Below are positions 24,846 through 54,425 of a stretch of 64,000 bases of DNA, one piece after another. The first letter of the stretch is position 1, and every line of letters starts with the position of its first letter. Origin of the DNA: Squalus acanthias (taxonomy: Eukaryota); assembly GCA_030390025.1 (NCBI GenBank), contig CM059431.1, positions 141,858,001 to 141,922,000 on the forward strand. Reading direction: 5' to 3'. The translations under genes and the position numbers were made by a program. The notes below the pieces were generated by a model that saw only the letters and a list, made by a program, of their open reading frames with translations, was not told the origin of the DNA and made no database searches.

Positions 24846-26256
24846 ATGGGGCGACCAGCTATGCTGCTGATAAAAGAGATTTACTACCCGATTCTCGCAG
24901 CTTTCGGTGTCCCCGGTGAGCCATTGTAACCTGCTTGTTGTTAATCGGTGTTAACTGTGTCCCTGTTCATGTCGCATATTGGATAAGGTAACAGTTTTAC
25001 AGATGTCAGCATGACACAGTGAACCGCGTGTCTGCACTTTCCACGTTCCCCTTAATACCATAACATTACTGATGTTACAATGATTTTGAAGTTCCAACAC
25101 CAGGATTTTAGCGGATTTCCGGACCGTCTTTTCCCCCCGTGCAGAGTGAGCGCTGTAGCAGCTCATTAAAATGTGTGTGTGGGTTTCCCAGGTAATGGCT
25201 CCAATACTAATCCTGTTCTCACACTGCTACGTGTTGAAAATCACACTGAATGGAGTAAGATGCTCTCCATAGGTATCTGCATATATATTTCAATCAGATA
25301 CTGGAACATTATTTCTCTCCTCTCTCTTTCTTACAGCGAACCTGGTGACAATTGTGATTCTCTCCAGAGGAAACTGCGGTCTTTCCAAGTGTATCTCTGT
25401 CTACATGGTGGCCATGGCAACAGCAGATCTACTGGTCATGATCTTCAATGTAATGGTGTATTATATTTTCAGTTATCATTTTCCATATTCATTCCTGTCC
25501 CAGACTCCGGTGTGTAAGTCCAATCTATACATGAATCATGCCACCTTCGATTTGTCTGTTTGGTTCACCGTCTCCTTCACATTTGACCGATTTGTAGTTA
25601 TCTGCTGCCAGAAGTTTAAAGTAAAGTATTGCACCGAGAGAACTGCGGCTGCGGTTATAACAGCGTTCACGGTTCTAGTCGTTTTAAAGGGCATCCCCGT
25701 GTTGTTTGGATATGAATCTCAGCAAATAATTAACAAGGTGCAGTGGGGCTGTCAGTCAAGTGTAGCTTTTTTTTCCTCCCCTGCAGGTGAAGCGTATCTC
25801 TGGTTTCACACCATATGGGTCGTTTGGCTTCCCTTTACCTTAATGGCCCTGTTTAATTGTTTGACCGTCAAACGTATATTAATGGCCAGCAGAGCCCGCA
25901 GGGGACTCCGGGGTCAGAGCAGTGAGAATCAGAGCGATCCAGAGATGGAGAGCCGAAGGAAATCCATCATTTTGCTCTTCGCTATATCGGGCAGTTTTAT
26001 ATTGCTGTGGCTGACATCTGCCGTGAGTTTTTTGATTACCAGAATGTCGAACACCACTTACTACCGAGGCGACCGCACAAACCCAGCCTATGTCGCCACT
26101 GAAACCGGAGCCATGCTGAAGCATTTGAGTTCCTGTCCGAACACGTGTATTTATGCAGCGACCCAGAGGAAGTTCAGAGAAGAGCTGAAGAAGGTGTTGA
26201 AAACTCCCTGGACACTGATTCTAAGATTGGTTAAACATGAAAGAAAGCCGAACTAG
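24846..26256 (+). CDS. GPR139-like: Class A GPCR, GPR139/GPR142-like, two exons (24846-24915, 25337-26256), 329 aa, intact
   Basis: Exon 1 MGRPAMLLIKEIYYPILAAFGVP ends G|GTGAG; pyrimidine-rich acceptor TTCTTACAG|CG AAC restores GVPANLVTIVIL (phase 1; compare GLPANILTVIIL in GPR139). Seven hydrophobic segments, MATADLL, VCK, SVWFTVSFTFDRF, ECL2 WGC, FILLW, NTCIY...KFR. Confidence 0.9.
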
Positions 26257-28719
26257 AGCTTCGGTTGGGACATTAGAATTCCGTTCTAGCTCGTGTTCCA
26301 GCTTAGACTGGGGTTCTCTCTGCTAACCGCTGCATAAGGATTGTTCTTGTAAAAACTCACAGGTACGCGACTCTATTTGGGGCACTTTGTAACATTTAAC
26401 CAACATGGACCGTGTGTTTCCGCAGTTCTTTGGCCGAGTGTCTCCTCCCTAACAAGGTCATTCCCCCTTAATATGAAAAATGTCAATGATGAAGTGAAAT
26501 TTAATAGGGAAATATAACAGTTGATCAACGGGTTTAATATCTGATTCTGCGAGGACTGTAATTTAATTCTGCCATATATTGACCGGATCAGTCAGCAGTT
26601 TTAGGGAAAGATTTAGTCGTTTACAACTCCCTTTCCCTTACTTTTTTCTCGCAGGTTTGGTTAAAATGTTGCTTGGACTGATTGTAGCTGCAAGGGCCGC
26701 TTCACCCCTTCTCCTGGGAATAAGGAGCGGTGCCGCTGTCCCCTTCACAGTGTCGCGATGTTTCACCACTTTTTGAATGTTTACTGGAGTTGCCTCGTTT
26801 TACTTTTTTTTCTGACGTCTTTATTAATGAGAAATAGTTGAAGGCTGCCCAGCAACATTAAATAAAGTTGTTACTTGCTGTTACTAAATGTATCATGGTG
26901 AATCTGCGTGTTATTAACGTGAATCAGCCAACCTGTAACCTGGTAACACAGTGCAAGAAATACGAATTTATAATCGGGGCATTTCAGGCAAGGGTCAGTA
27001 ATCAGGACTCTCAGATATTTACATGGAATAATCCGCTGTGTGTGTTGGTGCACAGACAGTGCCCTGTAGTACCCCGTCCCTTTTACCAACTGGTGTTGAA
27101 CGGGTACCCCCAGTGCAAGGCGGTGTATTCGGAGCGCCGTCCGGCATCACTGGGGACCTGGGTTTGAGAGCGTTTCTCGGTGTAACGGCTTCAGATGAGG
27201 ATTCGAACCAATTAACTAGCATTTTGTCCGCCCGCTAATTTCAGTGGCTCGGTTGAAACTTTTTTCCAATTTATTCTGCAGTATATGTGATGCAGGTTGG
27301 AAGATGTCGAGGAAAGCTGTTCCTCGAACTGGGTAAATCCACTGTTCACACTGCAGGATGTGTAAGAAAGTCAGAGGACTGTCTCTAACTGCTTACGCTG
27401 TTCTATTCAGTATCCCGGGTTACACATATAAACAGGCAGCGCTGTGTCAGCTCGATCTTTACACTTCTTCAGCGATTGATGCGCGCCGCAGATATTAATG
27501 GTTCTGGTGGTTTATATTAATTTTAAAATGATTGGCTTGCATGCATTTTCTTTTCCCCAGTCGGATTGTATTTTTATCGCGGTGCCTTCCATCCACTGCA
27601 TGCCTCTAGTTATCAGTCCATTTGGGATTAGTGGAATCTGAATATTCTGAAATTAAGGTCATTTTCAATTTCGGCCTGGGCGGAAATCTGGCTGGAGCGA
27701 ACTGTCCGCCAGTCATACACCTCGACCGAATTTCCTTTTTCATTGTCTATAATGAAAAAGAGAATTGGGTGGATGTAAAATACGCTGCTGCCAATCGACA
27801 AAATTCACTGAAGCAAAGGAAACTACAGTCAAATCACGGAATTATTGACGTGTATCTTATTTCTGAATAGTAATTGATAAAATACCGACACTTTTGAAAA
27901 CGCCAGCAATTGTTTCTAGACTCTTTACTGTCAGAGTCAGTTTGGCAGTGCCAGTATTTGGATTGTGGGTCAGTTTTTAGTTCTTGTCGATGAAACCTAG
28001 TCTCTCATAAATTCTTAGACTCAGTAACAGATTTAAATGTTATTAAAATTGTATTGCATATTCGGATCGAAAGACAGACTTAACAATTTGTGGTGTAACT
28101 CACGCGAAGTTCTCCATCGCATATCGACATATCGGAACACGATGATCGCGTTGGATGTGTTTGTATAACAGTGCAGAGTGTTCTGTGGTTGTGGACAGTT
28201 AGTGGAGGATTACAGAGCTCCATCCAGAGGCTGACGGCCGTCCTTAACATCGGAATCTGTCTCTTGTTCCACTCAATGCCAGAAGAATGTAAAGGAATCT
28301 TTACCACAGCCGGAATGAAATGCATCTTGATTTATATTAATGTTAAGAAAATCAATGCCCAGAGTTGATGTCCACAAGTCTAATGATCCCGAAAAACAGT
28401 AGGCATAAATATTAGTGATTTATTTATTATCCTTGAACTGAAAAAGTATAATAAAGCTGCTGAGCAAACAAACTGCATGGAGTGAAAGATGCAGGAGCTC
28501 CTGAATATAATTGGTGACACCTCACAGAATCGCTTGAGCGTGGCACCCATTGGCTGTTAGTGACAGAAGTGTGACGAACCAGATTCACTTTTGAAGCACT
28601 CGGTACGTCATCAGGAGCCCCTTACTCCAGAATGTGGCACTTTTCACGATGGGCTGCAGGAAGTGAGGTTACAGTCTGATTGTCTTAGAACAGGAAATGC
28701 TGTCGCCATCAGTGCTGCC

Positions 28720-29390
28720 AGGGTAGTGGTGCATCGCAAATATTGCACCCCGTTCAAATAAGGGGAGAGGGATAATCTGGCAACTCAGGCCAGTCAACCT
28801 AACGTCGTGCAGAAACATTTAGAGACAATAATCCGACAGAAACGTAATTGGCACTTGGAAAATGTGGGTTAATCAATGAAAGCCAGCACGGATATTTTAA
28901 TGGGGAATCATGTTTTACTAAGTTGATCGAGTCCTTTCATGAAGTAACTGAGAGGATTGTTGAAGATAGTGCAGTTGATGCTGTGTATATGGACTTTCAA
29001 AAGGCGTTTGCCAAAGTACAACATGTAAGACCTGGTAGCAAAATTGAAGCCAAAATTGAATTCAAAATTGATAACAGAAAAAAAGGATGCTTAAGATAAT
29101 TGTTTGGTAAATAATTCAGTGGAGCACCAAGCTGAATACAAATTAGGCAGGGTTTTGATAAAGTAAATTCGACGAAATTGATTCCAGGAGCAGTTTGCTC
29201 GGGAACCAGAGGATATAGATTTAAGATAATTGGTACAAAAACCAGCGGGGACATGAGGTAAAAATAAATGAAAAAAATAGGTAGCAGAGGAGTGGGACTA
29301 ATTGGTTATCTATTTCAAAGAGCCGGCACAGGCATAATGGGCCAAATGGCCTCATTCTGTACTGTATAATTCTAGGATTATATGGTTCTG
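28720..29390 (+). mobile_element. Old CR1 fragments with internal deletions
   Basis: SQHGYFNGESCFTKLIE...VDAVYMDFQKAFAKV and a CR1 tail at about 29280-29390. Confidence 0.75.
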
Positions 29391-29923
29391 TGATCCCCGT
29401 GCCATTGTTGGTTGCGAGTTCCAGTGTAGAGTGTAAATTTAACAAATGCTGCACTAAGAAAGCGGAGAGACTGATTGTGGGATGCGGACGTGGGATCTTG
29501 GAGTAACTTTGGGAGATGTGGGCTCAGAGTGAGGAGCTCAGACAGCAGAGACAGACACAAATTCACGTGAACCCTCCGCGAGCCCTAATTCGCACTAACA
29601 TTTAAGTAAGGGTGAAAGGGCTTTTAATTTCGTTTAAGATAAATTGGAGTCAATCAGAAAACTATAAAAAATATTTTATTATTGGTAGTTGTCCAACTGA
29701 AGCGCATCATGCACTATATCCAATCATTCCAATACATAAGTAAAGGTAATAAATTCATAATAAACATTTAAAATTGGAATTGAAACTAAACATTAGGGGT
29801 TTCTCAGCAATTATCTGTGAGAAATGCCTCCTGTAGTTTCACCCCAACCTCGCATCTCTTTCTGGAGCCGCATCCTTATATTTTGCTAAATTTTTAAAAT
29901 CATGATAATCAGCCAAGCACAGG

Positions 29924-29988
29924 TCTCCCATAATGCACCAGTTCTGTTTAAGTCTCTGTCACGGGAGGACTACAAGTCCCAGAATGCA
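29924..29988 (+). promoter_or_regulatory. Two ZNF143/Staf-type binding motifs
   Basis: TCTCCCATAATGCACC (29924-29939) and GACTACAAGTCCCAGAATGCA (29968-29988) match the SBS and extended ACTACAnnTCCCA motifs; motif match only. Confidence 0.45.
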
Positions 29989-30904
29989 GCAGAGTCGCAG
30001 TGCATCTCAACCTGTTGCAACTGGGTTGCCAGCTTTTCATTTGTTAAAGTAGGGACAGGCACCACAGACTATCCCATTAACAACTGGGAGGTTGACTTGG
30101 ATAAATCGGCAACTTAACAAAAAAAGGTTAAACAATAAAGTTCCTATTATTGCCTCCTAAACTCCAGTAAATGTAGTGACAGGTGTACACCATTTATAGG
30201 TGTACTTTTTGATAATCCTCCCTTCCTTCAAGGTAATTTTCTTGCTTTCTCCGTTGTATATCTTGACTGTTAAACTCCTCAGTTCGAAATTCATCAGTTT
30301 ACCTTTGCCTGTGTTATGCAGCACATGGATTTTGCAGTTTGTTTACAGAAGCTTATGTTTGGCATGTGAGAAACTTACGATAATATAGTTGTCAACTTCA
30401 GAGCCAGCAAAATAGGTTCGTGCCGAATGTTCCTCTTGGTAATTCAATATATAACATACAGAATACAGTATCCCAGTGAGCTGAAATGTTCTGCCCGGCG
30501 CCCCTTCTTACTCCTAATTTCACATTTTGAACTTATGGATCTTAATGATTGAACTCCTTGCTACAGTGAGGAATTTGGGTATATTGTGCATACTCCTCGT
30601 TACATTAAAACTGACATTAGATCACCTGGGGGGGTTTCCTCTTTTCTAAAGATAGAAAGTAGGATTTTCTATAATTTCTTCCAAACAGGAATTGTGAATC
30701 CCTTTAATCTCTGGTACAGAGCTGTGTGACCTATAAAGTGCAGAAATATACTTTCCATGATTAGCTTATCAGAACTGCTCACACAGTACGAATGAAAGAA
30801 CTCAACTCTTCTTGTGACAACAATAATAGATTTAATTGGAACTCTATTCCTATGATAATCATGGGGCCATTCTCTAACAAAGGGGAGATCGGGAACTAGC
30901 AGAT

Positions 30905-32460
30905 TATGGGAACCCGTGAGACTGGGAACTGGCAGAGTGCGGTTACCCATGGGACTGGGATCTGGCAGAGTGCGGGAACCCGTGGTACTGTAAACTGTCA
31001 GAGTGCGGGAACCCATGGGATTGGAAACTGGCAGAGTGCGGGAACCCGTAGGAATGTATACTGGCAGAGTGCGGGATCCCGTGGGACTGGGATCTGGCAG
31101 AGTGTGGGAACCCGTGAGACTGGGTTCAGGCAGAGTGTGGGATTCCGTGGGACTGGAAACTGGCAGAGTGCGGGAACCCTTGGGACTGGGATCTGGCTGA
31201 GTGTGGGAACCCGTGTCACTGGGATCCGGCAGAGGGTGGGAACCCGTGGGACTGGGATCTGGTAGAGTGTGGGAACCGGTGGAACTGGGATCTGGCAGAG
31301 TGCGGGAACCTGTGGGACTGGGATCTGGCAGAGTGTGGAAACTCGTGCGATTGGAAACTGGCAGAGTGCGGGAACCCGTGGGACTGGGAACTGGCAGAGT
31401 GCGGGAACCCGTAGGACTGGGATCTGGCAGAGTGCGGGAACCCTTGGGACTAGGATCTGGCAGAGTGTGGGAACCCGTGGGACTGGGATCTGGCAGGGTG
31501 CGGGAACCTGTGGGACTGGGATCTGGCAGAATGTGGGAACCCGTAGGACTGGGATCTGGCAGAGTGCGGGAACCCTTGGGACTAGGATCTGGCAGAGTGC
31601 AGGAACCCTTGGGACTAGGATCTGGCAGAGCGCGGGTACCCGTTGGACTGGGATCTGGTAGAGTGAGAGAACCCTTGGGATGGAATCTGGCAGAGTGTGG
31701 GAACCCATGGGACTGGAAACTGGCAGAGTGCAGGAATCCGTGGGATGGGAACTGGCAGAGTGCGGGGACCCGTGGGCCTGGGATCGGGCAGAGTGCGGGA
31801 ATACGTGGGACTGGAAACTGGCAGAGTGCGGGAATCCGTGGGACTGGGATCTAGTAGAGTGCGGGAACCCGTGGAACTGGAAACTGGCAGAGTGTGGGAA
31901 CCCGTGGGATTGGAAACTGACAGAGTGCGGGAACCCGTGGGATTGGAAACTGGCAGAGTGCGGGAACCCGTGGGATAGAATCTGGCAGTGTGCGGGAACC
32001 TTTGGGACTGGGATCCGGCATAGTGAGGGAACCCGTGGGACTGGGATCTGGCAGAGCGCGGGAACCCGTGGGACTGGGATCTGGCAGAGTGTGGGAAACC
32101 GTGGGACTGGGATCTGGTAGAGTGCGGGAACCCGTGGGACTGGGATCTACCAGAGTGTCGGAACCCGTGGAACTGGGATCTGTCATAGTGTGGGAACCCG
32201 TGGGACTGGGATCTGGCATAGTGTGGGAACCCGTGGGACTGGGATCTGGCATAGTGTGGGAACCCGTGGGACTGGGATCTGGCAGAGTGTGGGTACCAGT
32301 GGGACTGGGATCTGGCAGAGTGTGGGAACCCGTGGGATGGAATCTGGCAGAGTGCGGGAACCCGTGGGATGGAATCTGGCAGAGTGTGGGAACCCGTGGG
32401 ACTGGGATCTGGCAGAGTGTGTGAACCCCTGGGACTGGGATCTGGCAGAGTGTGGGGATC
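30905..32460. repeat. 33-bp G-rich minisatellite (GGGAACCCGTGGGACTGGGATCTGGCAGAGTGC)n, about 47 units
   Basis: 11-aa periodic ORFs in several frames on both strands; the tandem unit is directly visible. Confidence 0.95.
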
Positions 32461-33134
32461 CGACAGAAAGAAAGGGGACCAGGTGAGCGGGGCGAAGATG
32501 AGAAGGAGTGCGGGAAGAGTCGAACAATTCCATAGAAGGAGAGAGCTCCACTATGAATTAATAAAATATCAATCATATATTTTTTCAACCGATGAGTCAA
32601 ATGTAATGAAAAGGGATTCGATTAAATCGGTAAAGGAAGAGATTGGATCCTTTCCAAAGGGGAATTTGTTAACATATTTAAAATGTGATTCTTATTTGTT
32701 GATTGTACGAAAAAAAATTAAGAATAATCTTCTTAAATTGTTGATTATACGAAAAAAAATAAGATTAAACTGCTAAACTGAGCAAGGAAGAGATCAAGGC
32801 AAGACTGGTGGTACCCGGATGTAAGGTCTCGGGCGGGCCCTCGCCCACAGCGGGTGAAAGACCTGAAACTGCCGACATGGCGAGAAGCTGGGATAGTTCT
32901 CCATAGAGCAGAGAATGTTCAGGGGAGATTTAACAGAGATGTGCAAAATTATAAGGGGTTTAGGGTAAATAAGGAGAGATTGTTTCCACTGGCAGGAGGG
33001 TCAGTAATCAGAGGACGCGTATTTAAGGCAATTAGATAATGATCCAGGGAGGAGTTGAGGAGTTTTTTTTTCTACGTAGCGAACTGTTATAATCCAGAAT
33101 GCATTGTCTGAAAGGGTCATGGAAGCGAATTCAA

Positions 33135-33590
33135 TAATAAAAAATAAATATTACATGTTTACATCTCCTTTAAAGATCCAAGACATCCTAAAGTGCTTTA
33201 CAGCCAATGAGGTACTTTAGAAGTGTAGACACTGTTGTCATGTAGGAAGCGAGACACCAAATTGTACACAGCCAGGTCTCACCAATAACCATGAGATGAT
33301 GACCAGGGATGTTGGTTGAGGGATGAATCTTGTCCCGGACTCTGTGCAGACCTCCCCTGCTCTTCTTTCAAATAGTGCTGTGGGATCTTTTACGTCCTCC
33401 TGACAGGGCAGTCGGGGACTAGGTTTAACGTCCCATCTGAAAGACGGCACCTCTGACAGTGCAGTATTCTCTCAGTACTGCATTGGAATGTCAACCTAGA
33501 TTTTGTGTGCAAGCCTCTGGAGCGGGACTTAAACCCATTGCCACCTGATTCAGAGGCGAGAGTGCGACCACAGAGCCACTGTTGACACCC
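33135..33590 (-). mobile_element. tRNA-derived Deu-domain SINE (SacSINE1/AmnSINE-like) inserted in a CR1 tail
   Basis: Reverse complement starts GGGTGTCAACAGTGGCTCTGTGG (A box) and GGGTTTAAGTCCC (B box-like), with core GAGGTGCCGTCTTTCAGATGGGACGTTAAACC...GTAAAAGATCCCACAGCACTATTTG; CR1 tail pieces on both sides (about 32890-33130 and 33595-33765). Confidence 0.75.
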
Positions 33591-33804
33591 TTATACCAAT
33601 AGCAACTTTAAAAGAGAACCGGATATTTACCTTAAAAGGCAAGGTTTGCTGGGCTTTGGGGAAAAAGCAGGGTTGTTGGAATAATTGGATACCCATTTCA
33701 AAGAGCCGGGAGAGGCACGATAGGCTACATGGTCTCCTTATGTGCTTTCTGATTCTATGATTCTGTGCCGCTTGCGTTATCCGCCCATTAATGTCAATGG
33801 AATT

Positions 33805-35615
33805 AAACTAATGAAGGAGCAGGGGGGGGGGGGCGGGAGAGTTCAGGAAAGAGTACATTTAAAAGCAGTGAAATGTCAAGGCACTAGAGCAGAGTAGAGT
33901 TTTGTGTAAAAATAAACAGAGTGCGTCAGGAAGGGACAGAGAGAGTAACAAAGGTAATAAGGCATCAGTGACTAAGGTGACTGCAGGGAAAAAGGGAAAT
34001 AAGTCCAAGATAAAGGCATTATATCTAAATGCGTGAAGCATTCGCAACAAAATAGATCGATTAATAGCGCAGATAGAAGTTAAAAGGTTTAATCTAATAG
34101 CCATAACGGAGACGTGGTTGCAAAGTGGCCACGGTTGGGAAATAAACATTCCAGGATACATCAATTTAGAAGGGAGAGGCAAAATGAAAAAGGAGGAGTG
34201 GTAGCCCTGATAATAAAGCATGGGATGCAGACATTAGAGAGAAAGGGTCTTAGCTCTGAAAATAAAGAACGAGAATTAGTTTGGGTGGAGCTAAGAAACA
34301 GTAAGGTGCAGAAAACATTGGTGGGAGTTGTTTATAGGTCCCCAAACATTAGTTGTAATGTAAGGCAGATTATAAATCAGGAAATTGGAGGCGAATCTAG
34401 CAAGGGTAATACAGTAATGATGGGGGACTTTAATCTACATATGGACTGCGCAAACCAAATGTGCAGTAATAGCGTGAAGGACGAAATCATGGAATGTATG
34501 TAAGATAGTTTTCTAGATCAGTATGTTGAGGAACCAACCAGGGAACAGGAACTTAGATCTAGTATTGTGCAACGAGAAAGGGTTAAATGATAACCCCGTA
34601 GTAAAGGGGCACTTAGGAAAGAGTGACCATATTATTGTAGAATTTTATATTGAGTTTGAAAGTGACTTATTTAAATCCGAAACTAGGGTCTTCAATCTAT
34701 ACAAAGCAAACTACTGAGGTATGAGGGAGGAGTTGGCTAATGTAAATTGGGAAAATACATTCAAAGGTATGACAGTGGACGAGCAATGGCTACCATTTAA
34801 AGAATTAATACATAATTTACAACAAATATACATTCCATTAAGGCACAAAAACTCCACATGAAAAGTGGTCCAACCGTGGTTAACAAGATAAGTTAAATAT
34901 AGTATTAGGTCAAAGGAAGAGGCTTTTAATGCTGCCAAAAAGTGTAGTAAGCCTGAGGATTGGGAGGATTTAAGAATTCAGCAAAAGAGGACTAAGACAT
35001 TTAAGAATCAAGATGTAAACCTGCAATTATATAGGGCCCTGGTGAGACCACACCTGGAGTACTGTGTACAGTTTTGGTCTCCTTACCTAAGGAAGGATAT
35101 ATTTGCCATAGAGGGAGAGCAACGAAGGTTCACCAGACTGGTTCCTGGGATGGGGGGATTGTTCTATGAGGACAGATTGAGTAGACTCGGCCTATATTCT
35201 CTAGAGTTTAGAAGAATGAGAGGTGATCTCATTGAAATATACAAAATTCTTACAGGGCTTGACAGGTTAGATGCAGGGAGGATGTTTCCCCTGGCTGGGG
35301 AGTATAGAACCAGGGGTCACAGTCTCAGAATAAAGGGTCGGCCATTTAGGACTGAGATGAGGAGAAATGTCTTCACTCAGAGGGTGGTGAATCTTTGGAA
35401 TTCTAGACCCAGATGAATGTGAAGGCTCAGTCGTTGAGTATATTTAAGACAGAGATCGATAGATTTTTGAATATTAAGGGAATCAAGGGAGATGGAGATA
35501 GTTCAGGAAAGTGGAGATGAGGTTAAAGATCAGCCATGATCTTATTGAATGGCGAAGCAGGCTCCAAGGGCTAAATGGCCTACTTCTGCTCCTATTTTTT
35601 ATGTTCTATTGTTTT
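33805..35615 (+). mobile_element. CR1 LINE ORF2 with a large internal deletion (APE joined to C-terminus) and 3' tail
   Basis: ITETWL, VGVVYRSP, MGDFN and LGKSDH, then a jump near 35000 to RPHLEYCVQFWSPYLRKD. Confidence 0.88.
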
Positions 35616-38450: not shown

Positions 38451-39814
38451 TTATTCTGATTTTCTAACTAATCTCAGAATGAGTGCCCATGGAGATTTTA
38501 TCACCCTCTTCAGCTCTTCTCTGAATTTCCTCTGGGTCGCTACATAAATGCACGGGTTTTGAAAGCAACTCAAAAACTTCAACATTGTTCCGGTTTCAGT
38601 GGCGATATATCCAGGGTCTGTGCGGTCACCTCGATAATAGGTGATGTTTGTCAGTCTGGTAGTTACCAAACTTACGGCAGTTGTGAGCCACAACAATATA
38701 AAACTACCCGATATGGTGAGGAGTAAAATGATGGATTTCCTTCGGTTCTCCATCTCTGGATCGCTCTGATTCTCAATCCTGTGGCCCCGGAGTCCCCTGC
38801 GGACTCTACTGGACACTAAAATACGTCTGACTGTCAAATAATTTAACAAGGCAAGTAAAGTAAAAGGAAGCCAAACTACCCAGGCCATTTGAAACCAGAC
38901 GTAAGCTATACCTAGAGGTGAGGAAAAAAAAGCCGCACTGTTCCTGCAGCCCCACTGCACCTTGTTAATTATTTGTTGAGGTTCAAATGCAAACAAAATG
39001 GCGATCTCCTTACAACAATTAGGACCGCGAACGCTGTTATAACTGCGGCCGCAGTTCTCTCGGTGCAATACTTTGTTTTAAACTTCTGGCAGCAGAGAAC
39101 TACAAATCGGTCAAATGTGAAGGAGACGGTGAACCAAACAGACAAATCGAGGTTGACAGCAGTGATGTATAGAATGAACTTACACACGGGAGTGTGGTAC
39201 AGGAATGAAACTGGAAAGTGATACTTTAAAATATGATACACTATTACATTGATTATCAAGGCCAGTAGATCTGCTGTCGCCATGGTCACCATGTAGACAG
39301 AGATGCACTTGGAAAGGCCGCAGTTTCTTCGGAACAGAATAACAATTGTCAGCAAGTTCGCTGTAAGAGAGAGAGAGGAGAGAAATAATGTTCCAGAGTC
39401 TGATTGTAATATATGTGGAGATACCTGTTCACAGCAGTTTACTCCATTCAGTGTGATTATCCACACGGAGCAGTGTGAGAACAGGATTAGTATTGGAGCC
39501 ATTACCTGGGAAACCCACACATTTTAATGAGCTGCTGCAGCGCTCACTCTGCACGGGGGGACTCGACGGTCCAGAAATCCGCTAAAATCCTTGTGCTGAA
39601 GTTTCAAAGAACATTATAACATCAGTAAGGTTATCGGATTTGTTTACTGCTTACATCTAGGAAACTCCTTACCTTATCAAACAGGTTGTATGTACATGAA
39701 TACAATTAACACCGATTAACAACAAACAGGTTACAATGGCTCACCGGGGACACCGACGCCCGCGAGAATCGGGTAGTAAATCTCTTTGATCAGAAGAATA
39801 GTTGGTCGCCACAT
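38451..39814 (-). pseudogene. GPR139-like: GPR139-like GPCR paralog, two exons (39814-39745, 39360-38451), one 1-bp frameshift at about 39010; recent pseudogene or sequencing error (326 aa if corrected)
   Basis: Exon 1 MWRPTILLIKEIYYPILAGVGVP ends G|GTGAG; same acceptor as copy 1. ORFs 38969..39520 and 38451..39068 give the N and C halves; GTA AAG GAG is missing one A. No other disabling change was seen. Confidence 0.85.
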
Positions 39815-40249: not shown

Positions 40250-42155
40250 CAGCATTAGAGGTGACAGGGCTCCTCCCGTACTAGTGATACCCTACATTTA
40301 GATTAGAGGTGACAGTTCTCCTCCTGTACTACTGGCACCGTACACTTACGCTAGATGTGTCCGTGCTCCTCAGGTACTGTACATTACTAGAGTTGAACGT
40401 GCTGCTACGGTAATAGTGGTAGCACTACACTAACACTACTATTGATAGAACTCCTCCGGTACTAGTGGGAACCCGCCTCATACACTAGATGTGCGTATGA
40501 TCCTCCTGTACAGTGGTACCACTGCACTGACATTAGGTGTGACCGTTCGTCTCCTGTCCCAGTGTTACCGCTGCACTGACATTAGATGTGACCGTTCCCC
40601 ACCTGTCCCAGTGCTACCCCTACACTGACACCAGACGTGACCGTGTCCTTCCTGTTCCAGTGCTGCCCCTACACTTATACTAGATTTGTGCTAGTGCCTT
40701 CGGTAAAAGTGGTATCACTAAAGTTGCACAAATGGTGAACCTTGTCCTCCCGTACTAGTGGGGCCACTACACTGACACTAGTTATGACTGTGTATCTCCG
40801 GTATTATGGGTACCCTACACTTGCACTAGAGGTGACCGTGCTCCTCTGGTACTGGTGGTATGACTGAAATTATACTAGAGGTGGCCGTGCTCCTCTGGCA
40901 CCAGTGGTACCCCTACATTTACATTAGGATTGGCAGTGCTCCTTAGGTTCTAGTGGTACCCCTACACTTACACCAGATGTAATCGTGCTCCTCCCGTACT
41001 TGTGGTCCCCAAAACATATACTTGATGTGAACGTGCTGCTCAAAATGTGGCACTTGCACTATATGTGACCATGCTCCTCAGGTAACCGACACTGACACTA
41101 TATGTGACATTGCTCCTCTGGTACTTGTTGTACATTCACTTATACTAGAGATGAGCATTCACCTCCTGTACTAGTGGCACCCCTACACTTACACTTACAG
41201 TGGCCGTGCTCCTCCTCTACTATTGGTATCCCTACACTTACACTAGAGGTGACCGAGCACCTCCTGTACTAGTGGTATCCCTACACTTACACTAGGGGTG
41301 ACCCTACATTTACACTAGATTGGAGCTTGCTGCTGCAGAAATAGTCGTATCAATAAAATTACCCCTACACTAACACAAGTATTCACCGTGCACATACTAC
41401 ACTAGGGTTACCCCTACACTAACACTAGTATTCACCGCGCACATTCTACACTAGTGTTACCCCTACACTAACGCTAGTATTCACCGTGCACATTCTACAC
41501 TAGTGGTACCCCTACACTAACACTAGTCTGGACCATGCACTTCCTACACTAGTGTTACCCCTACACTAACACTAGTATTCACCGTGCACATCCTACACTA
41601 GTGCTACCCCTACACTAACACTAGTATTAACGTACACATCCTAAACTAGCGGTGCCTCTACACTAACACTAGTGTTGACCGTGCACATCCTACACTCGTG
41701 GTACCCCTAAACTAATACTAGTTTTGACCGTGCTCCTCCTACACTCGTGGTACCCCTACACTAATACTAGTTTTGACGGTGCTCATCCTACACTCGTGGT
41801 ACCCCTACACTAACACGAGAGGTAACCGTGCTCCTCCAGTACAAGTAGCACCGCTACAGTTAAACTAGGTGTCAGCATGTTACTCTTGTATTAACGGTAC
41901 CCCTACAATTACACTAGAGATAATAATGCTCCTCGGATACTGGTGGTACTCCGACATTTACACTAATAGTGTCCGTGCTCCTTCAGTAGCTGTTGGAACC
42001 CTATACATACACTAGAAGTGTACCTGCTCCTCCGGTATGAGTGTTACGCCTGCACCTACACTAGTGGTTAACGAGCTTGTCCTGTACTCGTGGTTTCCTA
42101 CACTTCCACCAGCGATAATGCTGAATCTACGGTACTAGTGGTAACCTTACACTTA
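40250..42155. repeat. 49-bp minisatellite (CCCTACACTTACACTAGAGGTGACCGTGCTCCTCCTGTACTAGTGGTAC)n, inverted homolog of the 48-bp array
   Basis: 49-bp period (41181/41230; 41361/41410/41459/41508); the reverse complement aligns to the 48-bp unit; locally homogenised variant block at about 41360-41820. Confidence 0.9.
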
Positions 42156-43030: not shown

Positions 43031-43174
43031 TTTGTGTTCCACACGAGCCACCAACCACGCTACTTCATGTAAACCCAGCAGCATGTCATTTTTTTCCTTT
43101 CTCTCTCATGTACTTATCCAGCTTGCACTTAAAAGCATCTAAGCTATTTACCTCAATTATTCCATATAGGAACA

Positions 43175-45470: not shown

Positions 45471-47414
45471 AGTAGCGGGTTCCACATGCTCACAACTCTC
45501 AGAGTAAATACGTTTCTCCTGAATTCCCTGTTGGATTTATTAGTGAAGATCCAATGCGGTCCCTAGTTTAGGATATCCCAGCAAGTGGAAACATATTCTC
45601 TACACCTACCCTATCAAAGCCCTTCTTAAGTTTAAATAACTCTATCAGGTCACCCAACAGCCTTCTCTTTTCTAGAGAAAAGAGCCCCAGCCTGTTAAAT
45701 TTTTCCTGATACTTATAAACTCACATTTCTGTTATAAGTCTTGTAAATATTTGTTGAAAATTTTCCAGTGACTCTCTATCATTTTTGTATTACGTCTACA
45801 TCGTCGGGACACCCCACCTTGCCCAAAATATTTCTCCTTATTTAATTGTACTAAAAATGATAGGAAACCATTCTGTGTGCTTTCCTATTTTGATAACCCG
45901 CAGTTCCCCTGCCGATTTTATTACAATTATGGGCTCTTTCATCCCAGCCTCTTCCCTCTCCTCAGTGGGCCTTCAGCACCAGGCGGTTGTGAGCTGATTG
46001 ACTGATGCCTTCCAGCACGCTTCTTGTGGGACTGAGGCGGAACTTCCTTATGCAAGGTGTTGGGTTGTTTCCCCTTTCAGAAGAAAGTGCAGAGTGTGAA
46101 GCCAGTCCGCTTGGCGTTATCTGAAATGTAACCCAGGGGCCAGAAAGCGAAGCTTAATGTGGGTGATAACAGGGACAGAAAGCAAGCAATAAGCGTCATG
46201 TGAGTCTTCCACTGGTTTCTGACATGTCGGCCTGTCTGGAAAGGATGGGGTGGGCTGAAGCGTATTGAGGAACCTCATGCACATTGCTACCCAGCTCTCT
46301 GGTGATCAATGAAATGAGGCCCGGGGGTTGGCAAAATTGAACATGGTTATTATAGCGCACTGTTACATGGGTCACTGACTCCTGTTACCTTGGCTGCTCC
46401 GGGGAGTTCACTGATCATCGCCTGGCTTTCAGTAGCCATTGTATTGTAAAATTGGTAGTTGACAATATTTCTTTGGTCCACTCACCACATCCTCCCAGCC
46501 CGACAGCCGCCCACTCAATGCCCATTTATTTATATTGTTTGGACTACAGAAAACCTCACGGTGCTTTGCTCTGAGTGTTATGGATCCACTGGCAGTGGGC
46601 TGGGTTCTAGTGACTGAATTGGGTCCGTTACATCACTGCATGTGATTGACCAATAAACGGGGGCTCTCGGTTTTCTTACCACTACGCGGGGTTTCAGTGC
46701 AAACTCTTTCTTTCCCTCTGGCAAGGGAAGGGCATGCGCTCTTTATACAGAACAGTCGGATATTCAGCATAACACCGCGAGCTGGAGCTGGCACCATCCA
46801 AAGGGGGAGTGTTCTCCACATCTGGATCCTTCCCCTCACGCTCCCGTTTATGGTCAGGGCTAACGTTGCTCCGTTGGTCAATCAGGGGTTTATTCTCCCT
46901 CAGCTAGTAGATAATCTGGACAATGAGATATTAAAGGGAGGCGTCACATTCCTCCCCCTCGTTTTTATCATTACAGCAACCCATTTCGGAGCCAATACTT
47001 TCCGTCATGTGTACAGCGCAGATTGAGTCCAGCCTGACATGGTGAACTCTGTAGGGAGCAGTTGAGGGCCCATTAGTTGAGAACAGTCACTAAGCTGTGA
47101 CACTCTCTGTCCCAGTGCTGACTGCAGATGAACGCGTTGTGAATCGGGGTCAGATTCCTTTTCTGCGCTGAACCAGGAGATTGTGATGATCGGCGGTTCA
47201 GTCCCACTAATGGAATCAGTACAACCCAACCCCACGGATCATTGTAAATTGACCGAACCACCTAGATACATGTGAGTGACGGGATTGGCCAGAATGGACT
47301 GGTTATGACAAGAGAATCATCACCACAGCTCAACCCCACTGATCATTGTACATGGACCGAACAATCTAGATATGTGTGAGTGAGGGATTCGCCAGGATAG
47401 GCTGCTCATTACAA

Positions 47415-48985
47415 AAACAACAACGTTCATTTATGTAGCGCATTTAAATTACTAAAATACCCCAAGGCACGTCACATGAGCGGGATCAGGCAAAATAGGA
47501 TAGCGAACGAAAGAAGGAGCCATGAGGACAGGTGACCAAAAGCGGGGTCAGAGGTAGGTTCTCAGGAGAGTCTTAAAGGAGAGAAATTGAGAGTCTTAGG
47601 GAGGGGATTCCAGAGTTTAGGGCCTAGACAGCTAAAGGCACCTCCTCCAGTGATGGGGAGAAGGAAGTGGAGGATAGACAAGAGGCCTGAGAATGAGCAA
47701 TGCACAGTTCTCGGAGGATCGTAGGGCTGGAGGAGGTTACACAGATTGGGAGCGGCGAGGCCATGAGGGATTTGAACAGGAGAATGAGAATTTTAAAATC
47801 GAGCCGTTGCTGGAACAGGATCCGATGTAGTTCACCGAACAGAGGGTGATGTGTGAATGGGACTTGGTGCGAGTTCGGTTCTGGGCAGCAGAGTTTCGGG
47901 TGAGCTGCACAGTTTATGGAGGGTGGAAGATGGGAGTCGGGACAGGATAGCATTGGATAAACCAGGTCTGGAGGCGGCAAATCCTGGAGGGATTCAGCGG
48001 CAGAAGGGGCGGAGCTTGGTGACGTTACACGGTCTTTGTGATGGAGACGATCTGGTGTCAGAAGGTCAGCTCAGGGTCAAATGGGAGGCCGAGAATGTGA
48101 ACCGTCTGTTTCAGGCTGAGACATTCGCCAGGGAGGGAGATGGAGCCGGTGGCGAGAGAACGGAGTTTATCACTGGGACAAAGACAATGGATTCAGTCTG
48201 CCAATATTTAATTGAAGGAAATGTTGACTCATCCAGGACCGCATGTCAGTCAATACTTTCATATCACAGAATCAGTGGAGGTGTGGAGAGAGCTGTTACT
48301 GAGGTAGAGAGATGCGTCATCAGTGGATATATGGATGAAGTCGCTAAGGGGCAGAATATAGATAGACGGGCGAAAGAATATAACCTTCGGGGACTCCAGA
48401 GGTAACGGTGTGAAAGCTCGAATATAAGGCATTGCAGGATATTCTCTGGCTGTGACTGCATAGGGAGCAGTGGGACCAGGTGACTGCAGTTCACTCAGCT
48501 GGAAAATGGAGGAGTGGGGTTGGAGAAAGATGGTGTCGTCAACCGTGTCAAAGCCGGGAAGAATGACAATGGAAAATGCGTCATGGTGACAGTCCCATAA
48601 GAATATCATTTGTGACATCAATAAGGACGGTTTCAATGCAGTGACAAGGGCAGAAACCTGACTGGAAAAATTCAAACATGGAGTTGCCAGAAAGATCTGG
48701 GAGACGGCTATAAGTTCAAGGAGAGGAAAAGGAGGTTGGAAATGTGGCGGATGTTTGAAAAGACAGAGGTTCAATTGTGGAATTGTTAGGTTGGTGCGAT
48801 GACGGCAGATTTGAAAGGGTGTGAACAGTGCCAGAGCTGAGAGAACCGTTCATAACATCAGCCAAGCATGAGATCTAGAAAGGGAAGCTGGGTGATCAGC
48901 AATTTAGTGGGAATCGGGTTGGGAGAGCACGAGGTGCGGCTTGTGGACAAATTGAGCTTGGAGAGGACACAACGGGAAATAGGGA
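47415..48985 (-). mobile_element. L2 LINE, decayed RT to 3' end
   Basis: RLDFKILILLFKSL, GFDTVDDTIFL, STDDASLYLS (YADD-like) and PIPTKLL. Confidence 0.75.
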
Positions 48986-49445
48986 AGCTCGACACCATCC
49001 AGGACAAAGCAGGCCGCTTGATTGGCACCTCATCCACCACCTTAGCATTCACTCCCTCCACCACCGGCGTACCGTGGCTGCAGTGTGTACCATGTACAAG
49101 ATGCACTACAGCAACTCGCCAAGGCATCTTCGGCAGCAGCTCCCAAACCCACGACCTCTTCCACCTAGAAGGACAAGGGCAGCAGGTGCATGGGAACACT
49201 ACTACCTCGAAGTTCCCCTCCAAGTCACACATCATCTTGACTTAGAAATATATCGCCGATTCTTCATCGTCGCTGGGTCAAAATCCTGGAAATCCCTATC
49301 TAACAGCACTGTGGGAGTACCTTCACGACACGGACTGCAGCTGTTGAAGAAGGCGGCTCACCACCACCTTCTCGAGGGCAATTAGGGACGGGCAGTATAT
49401 GCTGGCCTTCCCAGCAACGCCTCATCCCATAAAAAACGAATAAAT
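48986..49445 (+). mobile_element. LINE 3' end fragment (CR1/L2 group)
   Basis: KLDTIQDKAGRLIG, VAAVCTMYKMH and FIVAGSKSWKSL peptides; A-rich end with AATAAA. Confidence 0.65.
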
Positions 49446-50871
49446 CAATGCTAATGCAAAGGGAGAAAACAAATCATCCCCCAAACAAAGGAATTAGAAT
49501 CACATTGAAATGACAACATGATAGAGGCCAGTTTATCCAAACAGCCGTGTTGTTTGTACATGATCAGTATTCCTAATCCCATGTGACCACCGTGTTCCCA
49601 TGTAACATTATCCGCCTTTCATTCAAACAGCTATCTAATATATTCTTAAGTGTTGATTTTTTTTAAATAACTCTGATTTGGCCAATTACTGGCCATCAAA
49701 GTTGCCATAAGATGTTAGTCTTGGGCCTTCTTCTTGAACCACTGGTAAAAGTTTGATACAACTTGTTGTGCTAGGGCACTTCAGAGGCCAGTTGACAGTG
49801 AATTACGTTGGTGTGAGGTATGCTCCAGACTGGGTAAGGACGGCAGGTTTCCTTCACTAACGAACATCAGTGAGTCAATTGAATGTTTTAAGGAAATCTA
49901 CCAGGTTCACTTTTACTGATACTCGCTTTCTTATTTTTTACAAATTGTATTAAAAACTGAATTAAAGTTCTCAAACTGTCACGGTGAGATTTCAACTCAC
50001 GTTCTTCAAATTGTTAGTTCAGGTATCGGTGTTATCAGTCCAATAACAGACCCACTGCACATGGGCTCTGCTTCAGTCAGTAAATCTGGTCGCGTGTTCC
50101 ACAGCCAAACAACACTCCGAATAAAAAATAAAACCTGCTCTCTGTGGTAATTCCCGAGTATTTAATCTATTATCTCTGTACTCTAATTCTAGGCATCTGA
50201 AGCAACAAGAAAATCCTGCTGCTATCTGCTCTCTACAATCATTTTCATATCTTGAAACATCTACATCAAATTACCCCATAATCTGCTCTGATCTAACGAA
50301 AACAGGCCTGATTTTTCATGTCGTTCTCGGTATTTCTTTTCCCCGATACCAGGCAGCAGCTCAATGAATCTGTGCTCTCTCATCTCTCTTGCCTCAGCAG
50401 CCCACGTAAATTCTGCAGCACCAAAATGCACATAGAACTGCAGCTGTTGTCTCACTAACGATTTACACAGATTCACCATTACATCTGTACATTAATAGTC
50501 TACGCCTCTTCCTATAACACCCAATAATGCATTAGCTGTTTTAAAGCTATATCCAGTTGAGGTGCTGTTACAAAATCCTTATGGACATAATCCCCCACCC
50601 CAAACCAAATGCTCTTCCAAATCATGCAGCTTTTCCCATGCAAGGAATAAATACATTATTTGACAAAGATGCCAGCTCACATTTACTGACACTCAGTTCC
50701 AAATTGCATTTTCCCCAATTCAGGTCTCTTATCAATGTCCCTTTACAGCTTCCTTTGCTTCTCAGAATGATTTACTGTCCCTTCTATGTCAGTATCCATC
50801 ACTCTCTCAAACTAAATATACGAATTGCTCTGGATGAACAGGAAGGACGACTTTAAGATCCTCTGGAGGAG

Positions 50872-51335
50872 GCTGTGGCCCAGTGGGAATGGTCATTTCT
50901 CCATATTTACCGTTACACAGTGAAGCTCGGTGTTGGTACAGTGTCAGCCGGGGCTTGGTGGGAATGGTCATTTCTCTATATTTACCGTTACACAGTGATG
51001 TTAGGTGTAGGTACAGTGTCAGCCGGGGCTCGGTGGGAATGGTCATTTCTCTATATTTACCGTTACACAGTGATGTTAGGTGTAGGTACAGTGTCAGCCG
51101 GGGCTCGGTGGGAATGGTCATTTCTCTATATTTACCGTTACACAGTGATGCTCGGTGTAGGTACAGTGTCAGCCGGGGCTCGGTGGGAATGGTCATTTCT
51201 CTATATTTACCGTTACACAGTGATGTTAGGTGCAGGTACAGTGCCAGCCGTAGCTCGGTGGGAATGGTCATTTCTCCATATTTACTGTTACACAGTGATG
51301 CTATGTATAGCTACAGTGTCAGCCGGGGCTCGGTG
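50872..51335. repeat. 75-bp tandem repeat, about 6 units, containing a SINE 5' head
   Basis: GTGGGAATGGTCATTTCT at 50883, 50958, 51033 and onward; 25-aa periodic ORFs. Confidence 0.92.
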
Positions 51336-51740
51336 GTAGCAGCGTGGTAGTCAGAAGGAGTGGCTACCAACCCCACTCCACAGACTAAACCACATCATCT
51401 AGGCTGGTGGAGGTGCCATTTTGCAGAGGTGATGTTAAACCGAGGCCGTGTGTTCCCTCTCAGGAAAACGTGAAAGATCCCATGGTACTATTTCGAAGAA
51501 GAGTAGGGGATTCATCCCCCGCATCATAGCTGATCTTTATCTCTCAATCAATATTATTCAAACAAATTAAGTCGTCATTATTGCATCGCTGTTTGTGGGA
51601 TCATGCTTTGCGCAAATTTGCTGACGTGTTTGCAACATTACAGCAATGACTACACGACAAATAGTTGCTTCATTGGCAGTAAAGTTGTTTGGGGCGTCCT
51701 GGGGATGTGTAAGACGCTATAGAAATGCAAGTCTTTCTTT
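51316..51740 (+). mobile_element. Deu-domain SINE, decayed
   Basis: Head GTGTCAGCCGGGGCTCGGTGGTAGCA, core GGAGGTGCCATTTTGCAGAGGTGATGTTAAACCGAGG...GAAAGATCCCATGGTACTATTTCGAAG, tail GACGCTATAGAAATGCAAGTCTTTCTTT; homologous to 33135-33590. Confidence 0.7.
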
Positions 51741-52814
51741 GATAAGCATAGAACACAGAACTGCTACAGTAATATGCAGCGCAGACTAAACTGTGAGTAC
51801 TTAATGAATGGCAATGTGAATGAGGAGAGTGGGTACAGTGAGCGCTGTGAAGCAGCAACCAAGCAGACGCCTGAGCTACACCGCCCAATCAACGCCAGGT
51901 TTCAGCTGCAGCTCTGAGGTGCTCTATTCAGGTTTCACCCTGGGAAATGACCTGATTTCTGGTAACCCTGGTACAAGGTTAGCATCCACCCCGATGAGAG
52001 GTTAGAAAGGGGCCACTAGGCCGAGGTCCACTGTCAGCGGACTCGGCTACAAGGAACGTGCAGGGAAAGTCACATTATTCAACCTTCAGAGACGTCGCAA
52101 GAACAGACGAACAGACAGAAATGACGGGCAACAAAACACCGGCTGGTCCAGCAAGCCTGCCCCACACTCATGATGCTCGCAGCACGATGAGTAAACACTT
52201 CATATCTCCCTGCAGCCTGTGATCTTCGGGGAGATGCAATGTAGCAGAAAATACCCAAGGTCAATAAAGCGGGAAAAACTGTGGAGTATTCCTCTCCGAC
52301 ACCCTGAGGCAATCAAAACCACTTCAGGAGGTGACATTGACCCTGCGCACGTTAATTGTTAATCTTCTTTCCTTGAATATGCTGCGATATCTGCCCCAGG
52401 CCAGAAGCGGTCCAGCTCACTCTTGAAGAGATGCAAAGAGGCAGCACGTGTCGCCCCAGCTTGCAACACATTCCAGAGGCTCGTTACTCTTGGTGAAAAG
52501 AAAAACCACCTACCGAGCTCATCGGCATGTCTCCTGCTCCTCTTTAGCCTGTCAAACTGAAATCATCTTTCAATAGGCGCGCAATCCAGCAAGTGCATTA
52601 TTTGATAAGCCTTTATCTGGTCGCTTCTCGGAGTGCCGATCCTGCACCTTTATGTAAAGTACTAAGGGGCGGGGTTAAGGTAGGGGCGGGGTTAACAATG
52701 TTTGTCTTCAGCAGCATAAAGGATACAGGGCAGTAAACGGGCAGATAAGACAGCCAACACGGTTTTGTTGAAGGCAAATCGTGTTTGATTAATTTGATTG
52801 AGTTATCTGATGAA

Positions 52815-53612
52815 GTAAAGTGAAGGGTTGAATGGCCTCTCCCTGTTCCTGTGCTCAGTTCCGCGGTCTGAATATCCTACTCATGTTGCTATTTTGTTGG
52901 CTCTGAATATTCTCCTCCCATTCCTATATAACAGGCTCGATGAGCCGCCAGTTCTACCCCGGTAAATATGTAACAGGCTCGAGGGGTTGAACGGTGTACT
53001 CCTGTTCCTGTGCAACAGGCTCAAGGGGCTGACTGGCCTACTTTTCAAATGTGAGCGACCAAACGGTGCAAAATAGCTTACCCCTGTTTCTATGTAGCTG
53101 GCTCGAGGGGCTGTATGGCCTTCTCCCATTCCTATGTAACATATTCTACGGGCCGCTCGCCCTGCCCCTGTAAGTATGAAACTGGCTTGAGGAGTTGAAT
53201 TGCCTACTCTGTTATTTTGGAACAGGCTCGAGGTGTGGATGGCCGACTCCTGTTCCTATGCAGCACGATCTGGAGGATTAATGATTTAATCGTATTCCTA
53301 TACAACAGGCTCGAGGGGCTGAATGGTCTTTTTCAGTTCCGTCCTAACAGAAGCGAGGGGCTGAATGGCCTACTCCTGTTTTTATGTAGCTGGGTCGAGG
53401 GTCTGGAAAATCTACAGCTATTCCTATGTTACGGACTAGAGGGCTAAATGGCATCCTCCTTTCCTATGTAACGGGCTCGAGTGGCAGAATGGCCTCGTTA
53501 TATTCCTATGCAACAGGTTTTTGGGGCTGAATGGTCAATTCTGTTCCTACACGTCAGGCTGAGGGAGGCGGGGCGGGGGCTGAATGCCTTTCTCCTGTTC
53601 CTATGTAACAGG
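52815..53612 (+). repeat. 42-bp degenerate tandem array derived from the CR1 3'-terminal motif (TAACAGGCTCGAGGGGCTGAATGGCCTACTCCTGTTCCTATG)n, about 18 units
   Basis: AGGCTC at 52933, 52975 and 53017 (42-bp period); the unit matches CR1 tails at about 1553-1592 and 24252-24290. Confidence 0.85.
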
Positions 53613-53634
53613 CCCGAGAGAGTGCGACAATAAG

Positions 53635-54425
53635 GCGGTGACGTGTCTACTGGCCACGGGCTTCAACCTCATCGGAATTTCGGTTATGTCTTTCCACTTC
53701 CCTTCCTGTTCCACACTCCAGTTTGCATTCTCTGCTTGAATGTCTCCACCCTGGAAAGTTCTGTGCGGTTCACCGTCTCCTTCACCATTCAACGCTTTGT
53801 GGCGATATGCTGCTCGAAGCTTACAACGTCATATTGCACGGAGAGGACTGCAGCCGCGGTCTAACAGTGATCACAGACCTAGTCTGTTTCAGTTACAGCA
53901 TCCGATGCTTTGAACAGGAAGAAATAATTGACAATGTGCAGCGGGGTTGGAGCACAAGTGTGGAATCCCTTGTATTACATTCGTGGACAGTATATTCCCG
54001 GTGAAATCTATGTTTTCCCTTGATGTCATTTGCTTTGATTTCACTGTTTAAGAATCTGGCCGTTAGCCACACCTTGCGGTCCAATCGAATCCGCAGGGCA
54101 CTCTTGGTCATAACGGCGAAAAGAAGAGTGATCCAGAGAGGGAGAACTGAAACAGATCGATCAATTCGCTCTCCACTCTACCGGCAAATTTTACCTTCTG
54201 GTGGTTGAAAGCTGCTGTGAGCTTTAATTGTCAGAATGACGGCCAGCGTTCATTACCAAGGCGATTTCACCAACCCAATATGTATACCGACTCGAACCAG
54301 GTTCATGTTCATGTATTTGAGTTCCTGTACGAACACCTGCATTTCTAGAGCCACTCTGACCAAATACAGAGAAGAGCTGAAGACTTCGCTGATATTCCTC
54401 AGACTGGTTTAAAGAACAAAAATAA
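53635..54425 (+). pseudogene. GPR139-like: GPR139-like GPCR pseudogene, 5'-truncated, with multiple stops and frameshifts
   Basis: FPLPFLFHTPVC...SVRFTVSFTIQRFVAICCSKLTTSYCTERTAAAV*, EIIDNVQRG, and nucleotide similarity to the SDPE, YYRGD.TNP.Y and LSSC.NTCI segments of copy 1; 3' flank similar to about 26340-26370. Confidence 0.85.

Follow-up and report, generated by a model that had tools for sequence, protein, structure and literature searches.

Three linked receptor genes of Squalus acanthias are probable members of a large GPR139-related birth-and-death family of cartilaginous fishes

We analyzed a stretch of 64,000 nucleotides (nt) of the Squalus acanthias genome (GenBank assembly GCA_030390025.1, contig CM059431.1, positions 141,858,001 to 141,922,000 of the forward strand), hereafter called the window, to which all coordinates refer. 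The window holds three paralogous G protein-coupled receptor (GPCR) genes, i.e., an intact copy 1, a frameshifted copy 2 and a decayed copy 3. An initial annotation of this DNA had described three paralogs at three such stages, and our gene models agree with it. They also agree in the 70-nt first coding exon and the phase-1 intron in transmembrane helix (TM) 1 of copies 1 and 2. The gene parts are as follows:

24846–24915, + strand: copy 1, coding exon 1, 70 nt, followed by GT; N-terminus and most of TM1
24916–25336, + strand: copy 1, intron, 421 nt, GT-AG, phase 1, at the end of TM1
25337–26256, + strand: copy 1, coding exon 2, from the end of TM1 to the stop
39745–39814, − strand: copy 2, coding exon 1, 70 nt, 61 of 70 identical to copy 1
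39361–39744, − strand: copy 2, intron, 384 nt, GT-AG, 331 of 382 (87%) identical to the copy 1 intron
38451–39360, − strand: copy 2, coding exon 2, 760 of 909 (84%) identical to copy 1
53646 to ~54410, + strand: copy 3, 5′-truncated decayed pseudogene, from late TM2 to helix 8

Exons 1 and 2 of copy 1 together give an open frame of 329 amino acids, in which N1.50 is residue 25. The sole defect of copy 2 is one 1-nt deletion near 39011 (codon 140), and its frame has no in-frame stops; beside this deletion lies a short stretch of A, and it could reflect either a very recent mutation or an error of assembly. The copy 2 protein is identical to copy 1 in 241 of 321 residues, and the ratio of nonsynonymous to synonymous divergence (dN/dS) between the two is 0.41. 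Copy 3 aligns between 53646 and 54383 at 68% identity (497/733), with seven non-triplet indels and stops, and no exon 1, TM1 or early TM2 was detectable in it. Where its absent 5′ part should be, an array of a ~40-nt unit is found (~52850–53620) that looks like the 3′ tail of a long interspersed nuclear element (LINE). Within the window, tblastn detected the paralogs with E = 4e-129 and 1e-30, far beyond chance, and a six-frame profile scan of its 64 kb found no fourth copy. Copies 1 and 2 are inverted and face each other, i.e., they are not arranged head-to-tail.

From sequence and structure prediction, copy 1 can be assigned to the class A GPCRs. It matched PF00001 (7tm_1) with 74.6 bits (cut-off 30.5, E 1.1e-20) and nothing besides it in Pfam at E ≤ 0.1, with no Srw match. 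Class A motifs are present as N25, D54, C83/C162, D107-R108-F109, W248 and N292/Y296, with T replacing both P6.50 and P7.50. The predicted structure is a seven-helix bundle (mean predicted local distance difference test score, pLDDT, 88.7) that reached TM-scores of about 0.7 to class A receptors in Foldseek, and its extracellular loop 2 (ECL2) forms a hairpin of peptide-receptor type. This hairpin would fit receptors of internal or reproductive signalling, i.e., for peptides or pheromones in brain, gonad or sperm. So would the neuropeptide-receptor ancestry of the GPR139/MIP-receptor group, the expression of GPR139 in brain (PMC7318219) and the clustering of the GPR139/142 group with protostome neuropeptide receptors (PMC11004728). 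We nevertheless consider such a role improbable: receptors of endogenous peptides are usually ~1:1 between species, as argued for nematodes (PMC2576165), whereas in the family described below each genome carries pocket variants by the dozen and single species show blooms of their own.

We compared copy 1 with GPR139, the receptor after which its relatives are mostly named. Human GPR139 and copy 1 are 20% identical over 292 columns; human and zebrafish GPR139 orthologs are 70% identical (PMC7318219). In a phmmer search with copy 1 alone, GPR139 (E 2.6e-6) was no closer than the motilin or neurotensin receptor; neither single-sequence phmmer nor Foldseek discriminates among class A receptors, only profiles do. 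With a profile of 37 family members, GPR139 came first among solved structures (2e-23), followed by chemokine receptors (4e-16); MRGPR and FPR were absent from the best 60 structures listed. GPR139 was also the best solved relative of an outgroup profile (5e-42). Neighbours of copy 1 in a protein atlas included Srw-bearing and FMRFamide-receptor-like clusters.

The L-Trp/L-Phe site is composed of F3.33, H5.42 (5x43), W6.48, R6.51 and N7.39 (7x38) (PMC5430874). Copy 1 has kept two of these five residues, H5.42 and W6.48, and replaced F3.33, R6.51 and N7.39. Among 120 close relatives, one site residue is kept in 48, two in 70 and three in 2. Arginine or lysine at 6.51 occurs in none of the 120 and is present in the amphibian and most other outgroup proteins. 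Because three of five site residues are replaced and the basic residue at 6.51 is absent from the relatives, GPR139-style amino-acid binding by copy 1 and its close relatives is unlikely. The amino-acid sensing that the initial annotation had considered is weakened, in its GPR139-like form, by these replacements. Its other statement, that the genes are not GPR139 orthologs, is borne out by the low identity to human GPR139, the lost site residues and the many copies. From these comparisons, the label 'GPR139-like' appears right as kinship and wrong as orthology.

A search with copy 1 scored 3,139 candidates, of which at least 1,979 clusters (90% identity) reached E ≤ 1e-5. The best 120 of these were all from sharks, i.e., from 10 species, and were 61–79% identical to copy 1: 32 belonged to Pristiophorus, 31 to Heterodontus, 26 to Heptranchias, 11 and 8 to two Scyliorhinus species, 7 to Rhincodon and 5 to four other species. 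Among the matches listed, the closest to copy 1 were Heptranchias and Pristiophorus proteins (77–79%). The family profile collected at least 2,186 clusters at E ≤ 1e-80 among 7,999 scored candidates, and the 120 of them listed were all from cartilaginous fishes; the cut-off is a local calibration that excludes the nearest non-chondrichthyan protein, an amphibian sister gene (best 1.4e-70). In these cluster totals recent paralogs are merged, isoforms may be split and several species are pooled, so they are not per-genome counts. Per species, the matches listed contained at least 73 clusters from Heterodontus (horn shark), at least 53 from Heptranchias and at least 42 from Pristiophorus.

RefSeq and UniRef models of cartilaginous fishes represent the same family, mostly under the automatic name 'probable G-protein coupled receptor 139'. 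The automatic names are inconsistent, i.e., allatostatin-, capa-, vasopressin-, CCR3- and FMRFamide-receptor-like are used as well. Out of 20 representatives across the radiation, 19 are named, all of them from sharks, rays, skates or Callorhinchus. A FastTree tree of the 120 close relatives contained clades of 17, 11, 10 and 9 members that each come from one species, and species labels changed 35 times compared with 71.8 times in shuffles. From these single-species clades we conclude that duplication and turnover continue within species. The initial annotation had proposed a lineage-expanded birth-and-death family from the window, and the number of clusters, the single-species clades and the two broken copies out of three at this locus support it. 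The single-copy state expected of a GPR139/GPR142 ortholog is contradicted by these cluster counts.

The initial annotation had also described almost no extracellular N-terminus. This holds for the subfamily of copy 1, where 74 of 91 scorable relatives have residue 25 as N1.50, and fails for another subfamily with a long N-terminus (P0161, P0227, P0237, P0243, P0248). The latter contains a 13-residue repeat with an N-glycosylation site, and seven such sites are found in P0248.

We calculated a tree of 65 rows with IQ-TREE in quick mode, with SH-aLRT as the only support measure. All 46 chondrichthyan rows lay on one side of a branch (SH-aLRT 91), and their sister (98) was a clade that joins seven proteins from amphibians with one from sturgeon (support 100). 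A search with the newt protein returned 25 matches among 1,675 candidates, i.e., 20 amphibian clusters (66–100% identical, one per species listed), a sturgeon protein (46%) and four shark or skate proteins (32–33%); this search was word-limited and hence sets no bound on the range of the sister gene outside amphibians and sturgeon. The sister gene, e.g., Pleurodeles XP_069092602.1, is annotated 'probable GPR139', is ~34% identical to copy 1 and is apparently single-copy. Its sequences (P0219, P0269, P0272, P0292–P0311) come from frogs, salamanders, caecilians and sturgeon and have N in place of D2.50.

Two further outgroup clades, B (Latimeria/Odontesthes) and C (Engraulis/bichir/lamprey), were 24–33% identical to copy 1 and fell outside the radiation-plus-amphibian clade. 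They probably correspond to GPR210A and GPR210B, the GPR139/142-related orphan clades of coelacanth and fishes that are absent from human and were named in a survey that leaves sharks unmentioned (PMC6504862), although the Ensembl-id correspondence is putative. If so, GPR210A/B are branches separate from the radiation and its amphibian sister. A protein of the chimaera Callorhinchus nests inside the radiation, and we therefore conclude that the expansion began before the chimaera-elasmobranch split. Subfamilies that are ~43% identical have persisted since before that split.

To describe pocket diversity, we compared the entropy of 30 predicted pocket positions with that of 28 other positions at the same depth. 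In 45 deep members, entropy was higher in the pocket for the full alphabet (2.39 vs 1.86, p 0.014) and for chemical classes (1.63 vs 0.83, p 0.0006). The 73 Heterodontus proteins gave 1.91 vs 1.31 (p 0.008) and 1.25 vs 0.66 (p 0.004), respectively, and the 120 close relatives gave 0.89 vs 0.48 for chemical classes (p 0.016). The excess was significant in five of six shark tests. When the register was shifted by one or two positions in the Heterodontus set, the gap shrank or reversed; entropy was lowest at intracellular positions. The pattern was reversed in 22 amphibian orthologs, with 0.08 vs 0.46 for the full alphabet (p 0.0005) and 0.03 vs 0.14 for chemical classes (p 0.06).

At nine pocket positions, picked after their variability had been seen, the 73 Heterodontus proteins showed 69 distinct signatures. 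Their signalling core was conserved, with W6.48 and Y7.53 invariant and R3.50 present in 72. Between copies 1 and 2, dN was similar to dS in the pocket, on small counts. Acidic residues were frequent, i.e., 39 of the 73 Heterodontus proteins had one at 5.39 or 5.42 and 66 had one at 3.37. In clade III TAARs, amines are anchored by Asp5.42 (PMC8890504). The acidic pockets recall this anchor, and the analogy suggests that some family members have cationic ligands.

Copies 1 and 2 resemble each other beyond their exons. The following features were found around them:

16966–18914, + strand: 48-nt minisatellite upstream of copy 1, in two blocks split by LINE-like sequence
24313–24405: relic of the 48-nt minisatellite
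24760–24766, + strand: TATA-like element, assigned from sequence alone, in a proximal promoter common to copies 1 and 2
40253–42155, − strand: 48/49-nt minisatellite upstream of copy 2, a homologue of that of copy 1 and oriented alike with respect to the gene

Over ~500 nt upstream, the two copies are alike at 77% overall, and their promoter/exon-1 region is 85% identical over 345 nt. The minisatellites aligned with a score of 168 in the same orientation and 25 in the opposite one, compared with a shuffle maximum of 39; the upstream minisatellite is part of the duplicated unit. Two other arrays, a 33-nt one between copies 1 and 2 (47 copies, 30908–32456) and a 75-nt one before copy 3 (50883–51336), showed no likeness to the 48-nt satellite above shuffle level. 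A 26-nt satellite with 73 copies occupies the right end of the window (62104–63994, + strand), and a relic of the same repeat lies near the left end (1606–1769, − strand). Both point out of the window and have a weak likeness to the 48-nt unit.

In a protein tree, copies 1 and 2 are each nearest to a different Pristiophorus protein, and we therefore regard them as old paralogs. Their intron has diverged less (K 0.15) than the overall synonymous divergence (dS 0.33, p 5e-5), and dS is lower in codons 1–135 than in codons 142–322 (0.19 vs 0.45, p 0.005). The intron of a third paralog, seen on a contig from the probable RNA run X2, is 90% alike. A shared regulatory element or gene conversion is a possible cause of the intron conservation, and the 5′ likeness of copies 1 and 2 as a whole would point to constraint or gene conversion. 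A chimeric origin of copy 2 was considered and is not shown, each of its halves being nearer to proteins of other species than to copy 1.

These observations bear on a largely neutral expansion, in which a satellite-flanked cassette would be copied by unequal recombination and most copies would drift with little new function. The oriented minisatellite within the duplicated unit and the broken state of two of three copies are what such a process would leave behind, and an intron and 5′ half more alike than the 3′ half fit conversion. It is opposed by the dN/dS between copies 1 and 2, by signalling residues that stay invariant in 73 paralogs while pocket sites vary, and by the retention of ~43%-identical subfamilies since before the chimaera split. 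We therefore consider a largely neutral expansion improbable.

Transcription was assessed in three runs of the same species (X1 etc.), which are probably RNA and tissue-unlabelled and whose contigs carry no level, strand or cell type. Contigs at least 80% alike on 24300–26600 numbered 19, 16 and 14 in the three runs, nearly all from paralogs, and up to six different contigs overlapped a single position. One X1 contig spans 24789–24910 with 17 differences and joins to 25336, so that the predicted intron is skipped. For a paralog, the gene model gains support from it, although a retrocopy could give the same form. The intronic paralog contig in X2 indicates that unspliced RNA or DNA is also present. 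Some short contigs recur in all three runs, and their loose ends match the distant subfamily with the glycosylation-repeat N-terminus. Short contigs with depths of 94–176 also occurred in all three and may be words common to many paralogs. No RNA data set was listed for copy 1 itself, which bears neither way on its expression.

Family contigs in every tissue-unlabelled run also fit an immune or irritant-sensing repertoire in leukocytes, mast-like cells or nociceptors, which would stand in for MRGPR or formyl-peptide receptors and detect microbial or cationic host peptides. Such a repertoire would show the same expansion and pocket diversity, and the frequent acidic pockets fit it as well. Moreover, MAS1 and its relatives have been reported missing from cartilaginous fishes (PMC8455134). 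The window contains no immune gene, and the family profile prefers GPR139 well ahead of chemokine receptors, with MRGPR and FPR absent from the structures listed. We hence regard an immune repertoire as rather unlikely, yet as the foremost and a serious alternative to the chemosensory reading given below.

We propose with high confidence that the three genes are members of a GPCR family that spans the cartilaginous fishes, evolves by birth and death and forms a pocket-diversified repertoire. One ancestral jawed-vertebrate gene, retained as a conserved and apparently single copy in amphibians and sturgeon, would have multiplied before the chimaera-shark split. Turnover would then proceed by copying of a compact cassette that comprises minisatellite, promoter, 70-nt exon, short intron and main exon. 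Each paralog would bind different ligands, and all would signal through one shared G protein. In the OR, TAAR, V2R, FPR and MRGPR repertoires, too, a class A-type switch and the intracellular side are kept, and it is the pocket that varies.

The full reading adds that the family is a combinatorial repertoire for external chemical cues in sensory cells at body surfaces. To this we give even weight for and against. Its ligands would likely be amines or short peptides. We rank external chemosensation first because few olfactory receptors are known from sharks and because we found the sister gene in no group other than amphibians and sturgeon. The catshark has 34 V2R genes and 4–9 genes in each other olfactory family, and cartilaginous fishes have a very small olfactory receptor set despite large olfactory organs (PMC10116579). 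A bolder version, in which cartilaginous fishes would own a large olfactory or skin chemoreceptor family that evolved independently from the GPR139 lineage and exceeds V2R, OR, TAAR and V1R together, is put forward tentatively.

Several points weigh against these proposals. Conserved anchors served to number the helix positions by hand, and the 30 positions are a general class A pocket set. In the 120 close relatives the full-alphabet comparison (1.49 vs 1.12) was not significant (p 0.11), and neither was the comparison of copies 1 and 2, with 12 of 30 pocket and 68 of 291 other residues changed (p 0.07). As the sequences are related, the p-values are optimistic, and variable sites indicate divergence rather than positive selection. 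In copy 1 itself, 5.39/5.42 are occupied by L and H, so that neither site is acidic. Foldseek with the copy 1 model placed GPR139 at rank 9 and did not single it out, and the 65-row tree was built without GPR139 and GPR142 rows. Should the three runs stem from ordinary non-sensory tissue, family contigs in all of them would favour an immune or general role. Finally, no GPCR is among the 50 most specific genes of a catshark brain-plus-olfactory library (PMC11979771); this is weak evidence, chemoreceptors being of low abundance.

The proposed family can be set against known receptor systems. GPR139 and GPR142 (PDB 7VUG/9M42) are orphan receptors of class A that L-Trp and L-Phe activate, and GPR139 is the best solved relative of the family profile. 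GPR139 likewise has two exons (PMC7318219) and shares H5.42 and W6.48 with copy 1. In contrast, it is a single gene compared with dozens of copies per genome or more, and copy 1 lacks P6.50. The amphibian/sturgeon gene has the signature of intracellular loop 3 (ICL3) and TM6 in common with copy 1; unlike it, the gene forms one cluster per species, has an almost invariant pocket and is basic at 6.51. The OR, TAAR, V1R/ORA, V2R/OlfC, T2R, FPR and MRGPR families resemble the new one in clusters, pseudogenes, lineage blooms, a variable pocket and a compact coding region, and clade III TAARs share the acidic 5.42 with many of its members. The present family has an origin independent of all of these and is by sequence no member of OR, TAAR, V1R, V2R, T2R or FPR; it is nearest to GPR139-like proteins, and copy 1 matches 7tm_1 only.

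Nematode srw genes are a birth-and-death family from FMRFamide/myosuppressin-type receptors and were speculated to be sensors of environmental peptides (PMC2576165). GPR139/142 are akin to protostome MIP-type receptors (PMC11004728). By analogy, srw may serve as a precedent for a chemoreceptor family with roots in this wider circle of receptors (PMC2576165, PMC11004728). It is a separate expansion in another phylum, and copy 1 lacks the corresponding Pfam match.

Elsewhere in the window, ~56400–62100 is a decayed retroelement-like stretch with a possible long terminal repeat (LTR) end near 62050. Broken frames at ~59.2–60.5 kb resemble part of an envelope/fusion gene. The retroelement-like frames tested had no Pfam match except one sub-threshold UBA.

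We found no description of the family in the literature searched, which did not extend to subscription papers and two shark genome papers. Word searches of PMC11979771 (its supplement was outside the search), PMC8455134 (text and 24 supplements), PMC10620051, PMC10468316 and PMC10116579 gave no mention of it. A 'relative paucity' of GPCRs has even been stated for cartilaginous fishes (PMC8455134). The RefSeq proteins were known, as was the expansion of receptor repertoires as a phenomenon; new is an independent family from a branch without a known vertebrate expansion.

This family has been masked by one automatic name and was missed by surveys restricted to known families. One shark alone has at least 73 members with diversified pockets, which is more than the four olfactory families of the catshark together. 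It would be new either as a chemosensory class or as an immune and itch repertoire that replaces the missing MRGPRs. If it were a chemoreceptor class of its own, it would account for how sharks smell well although only ~50 of their receptor genes are known, and would add a class to the vertebrate chemoreceptors, parallel to the nematode srw receptors. The conserved amphibian sister gene (Xenopus, axolotl) offers a laboratory handle on the ancestral ligand and is a good target for deorphanisation.

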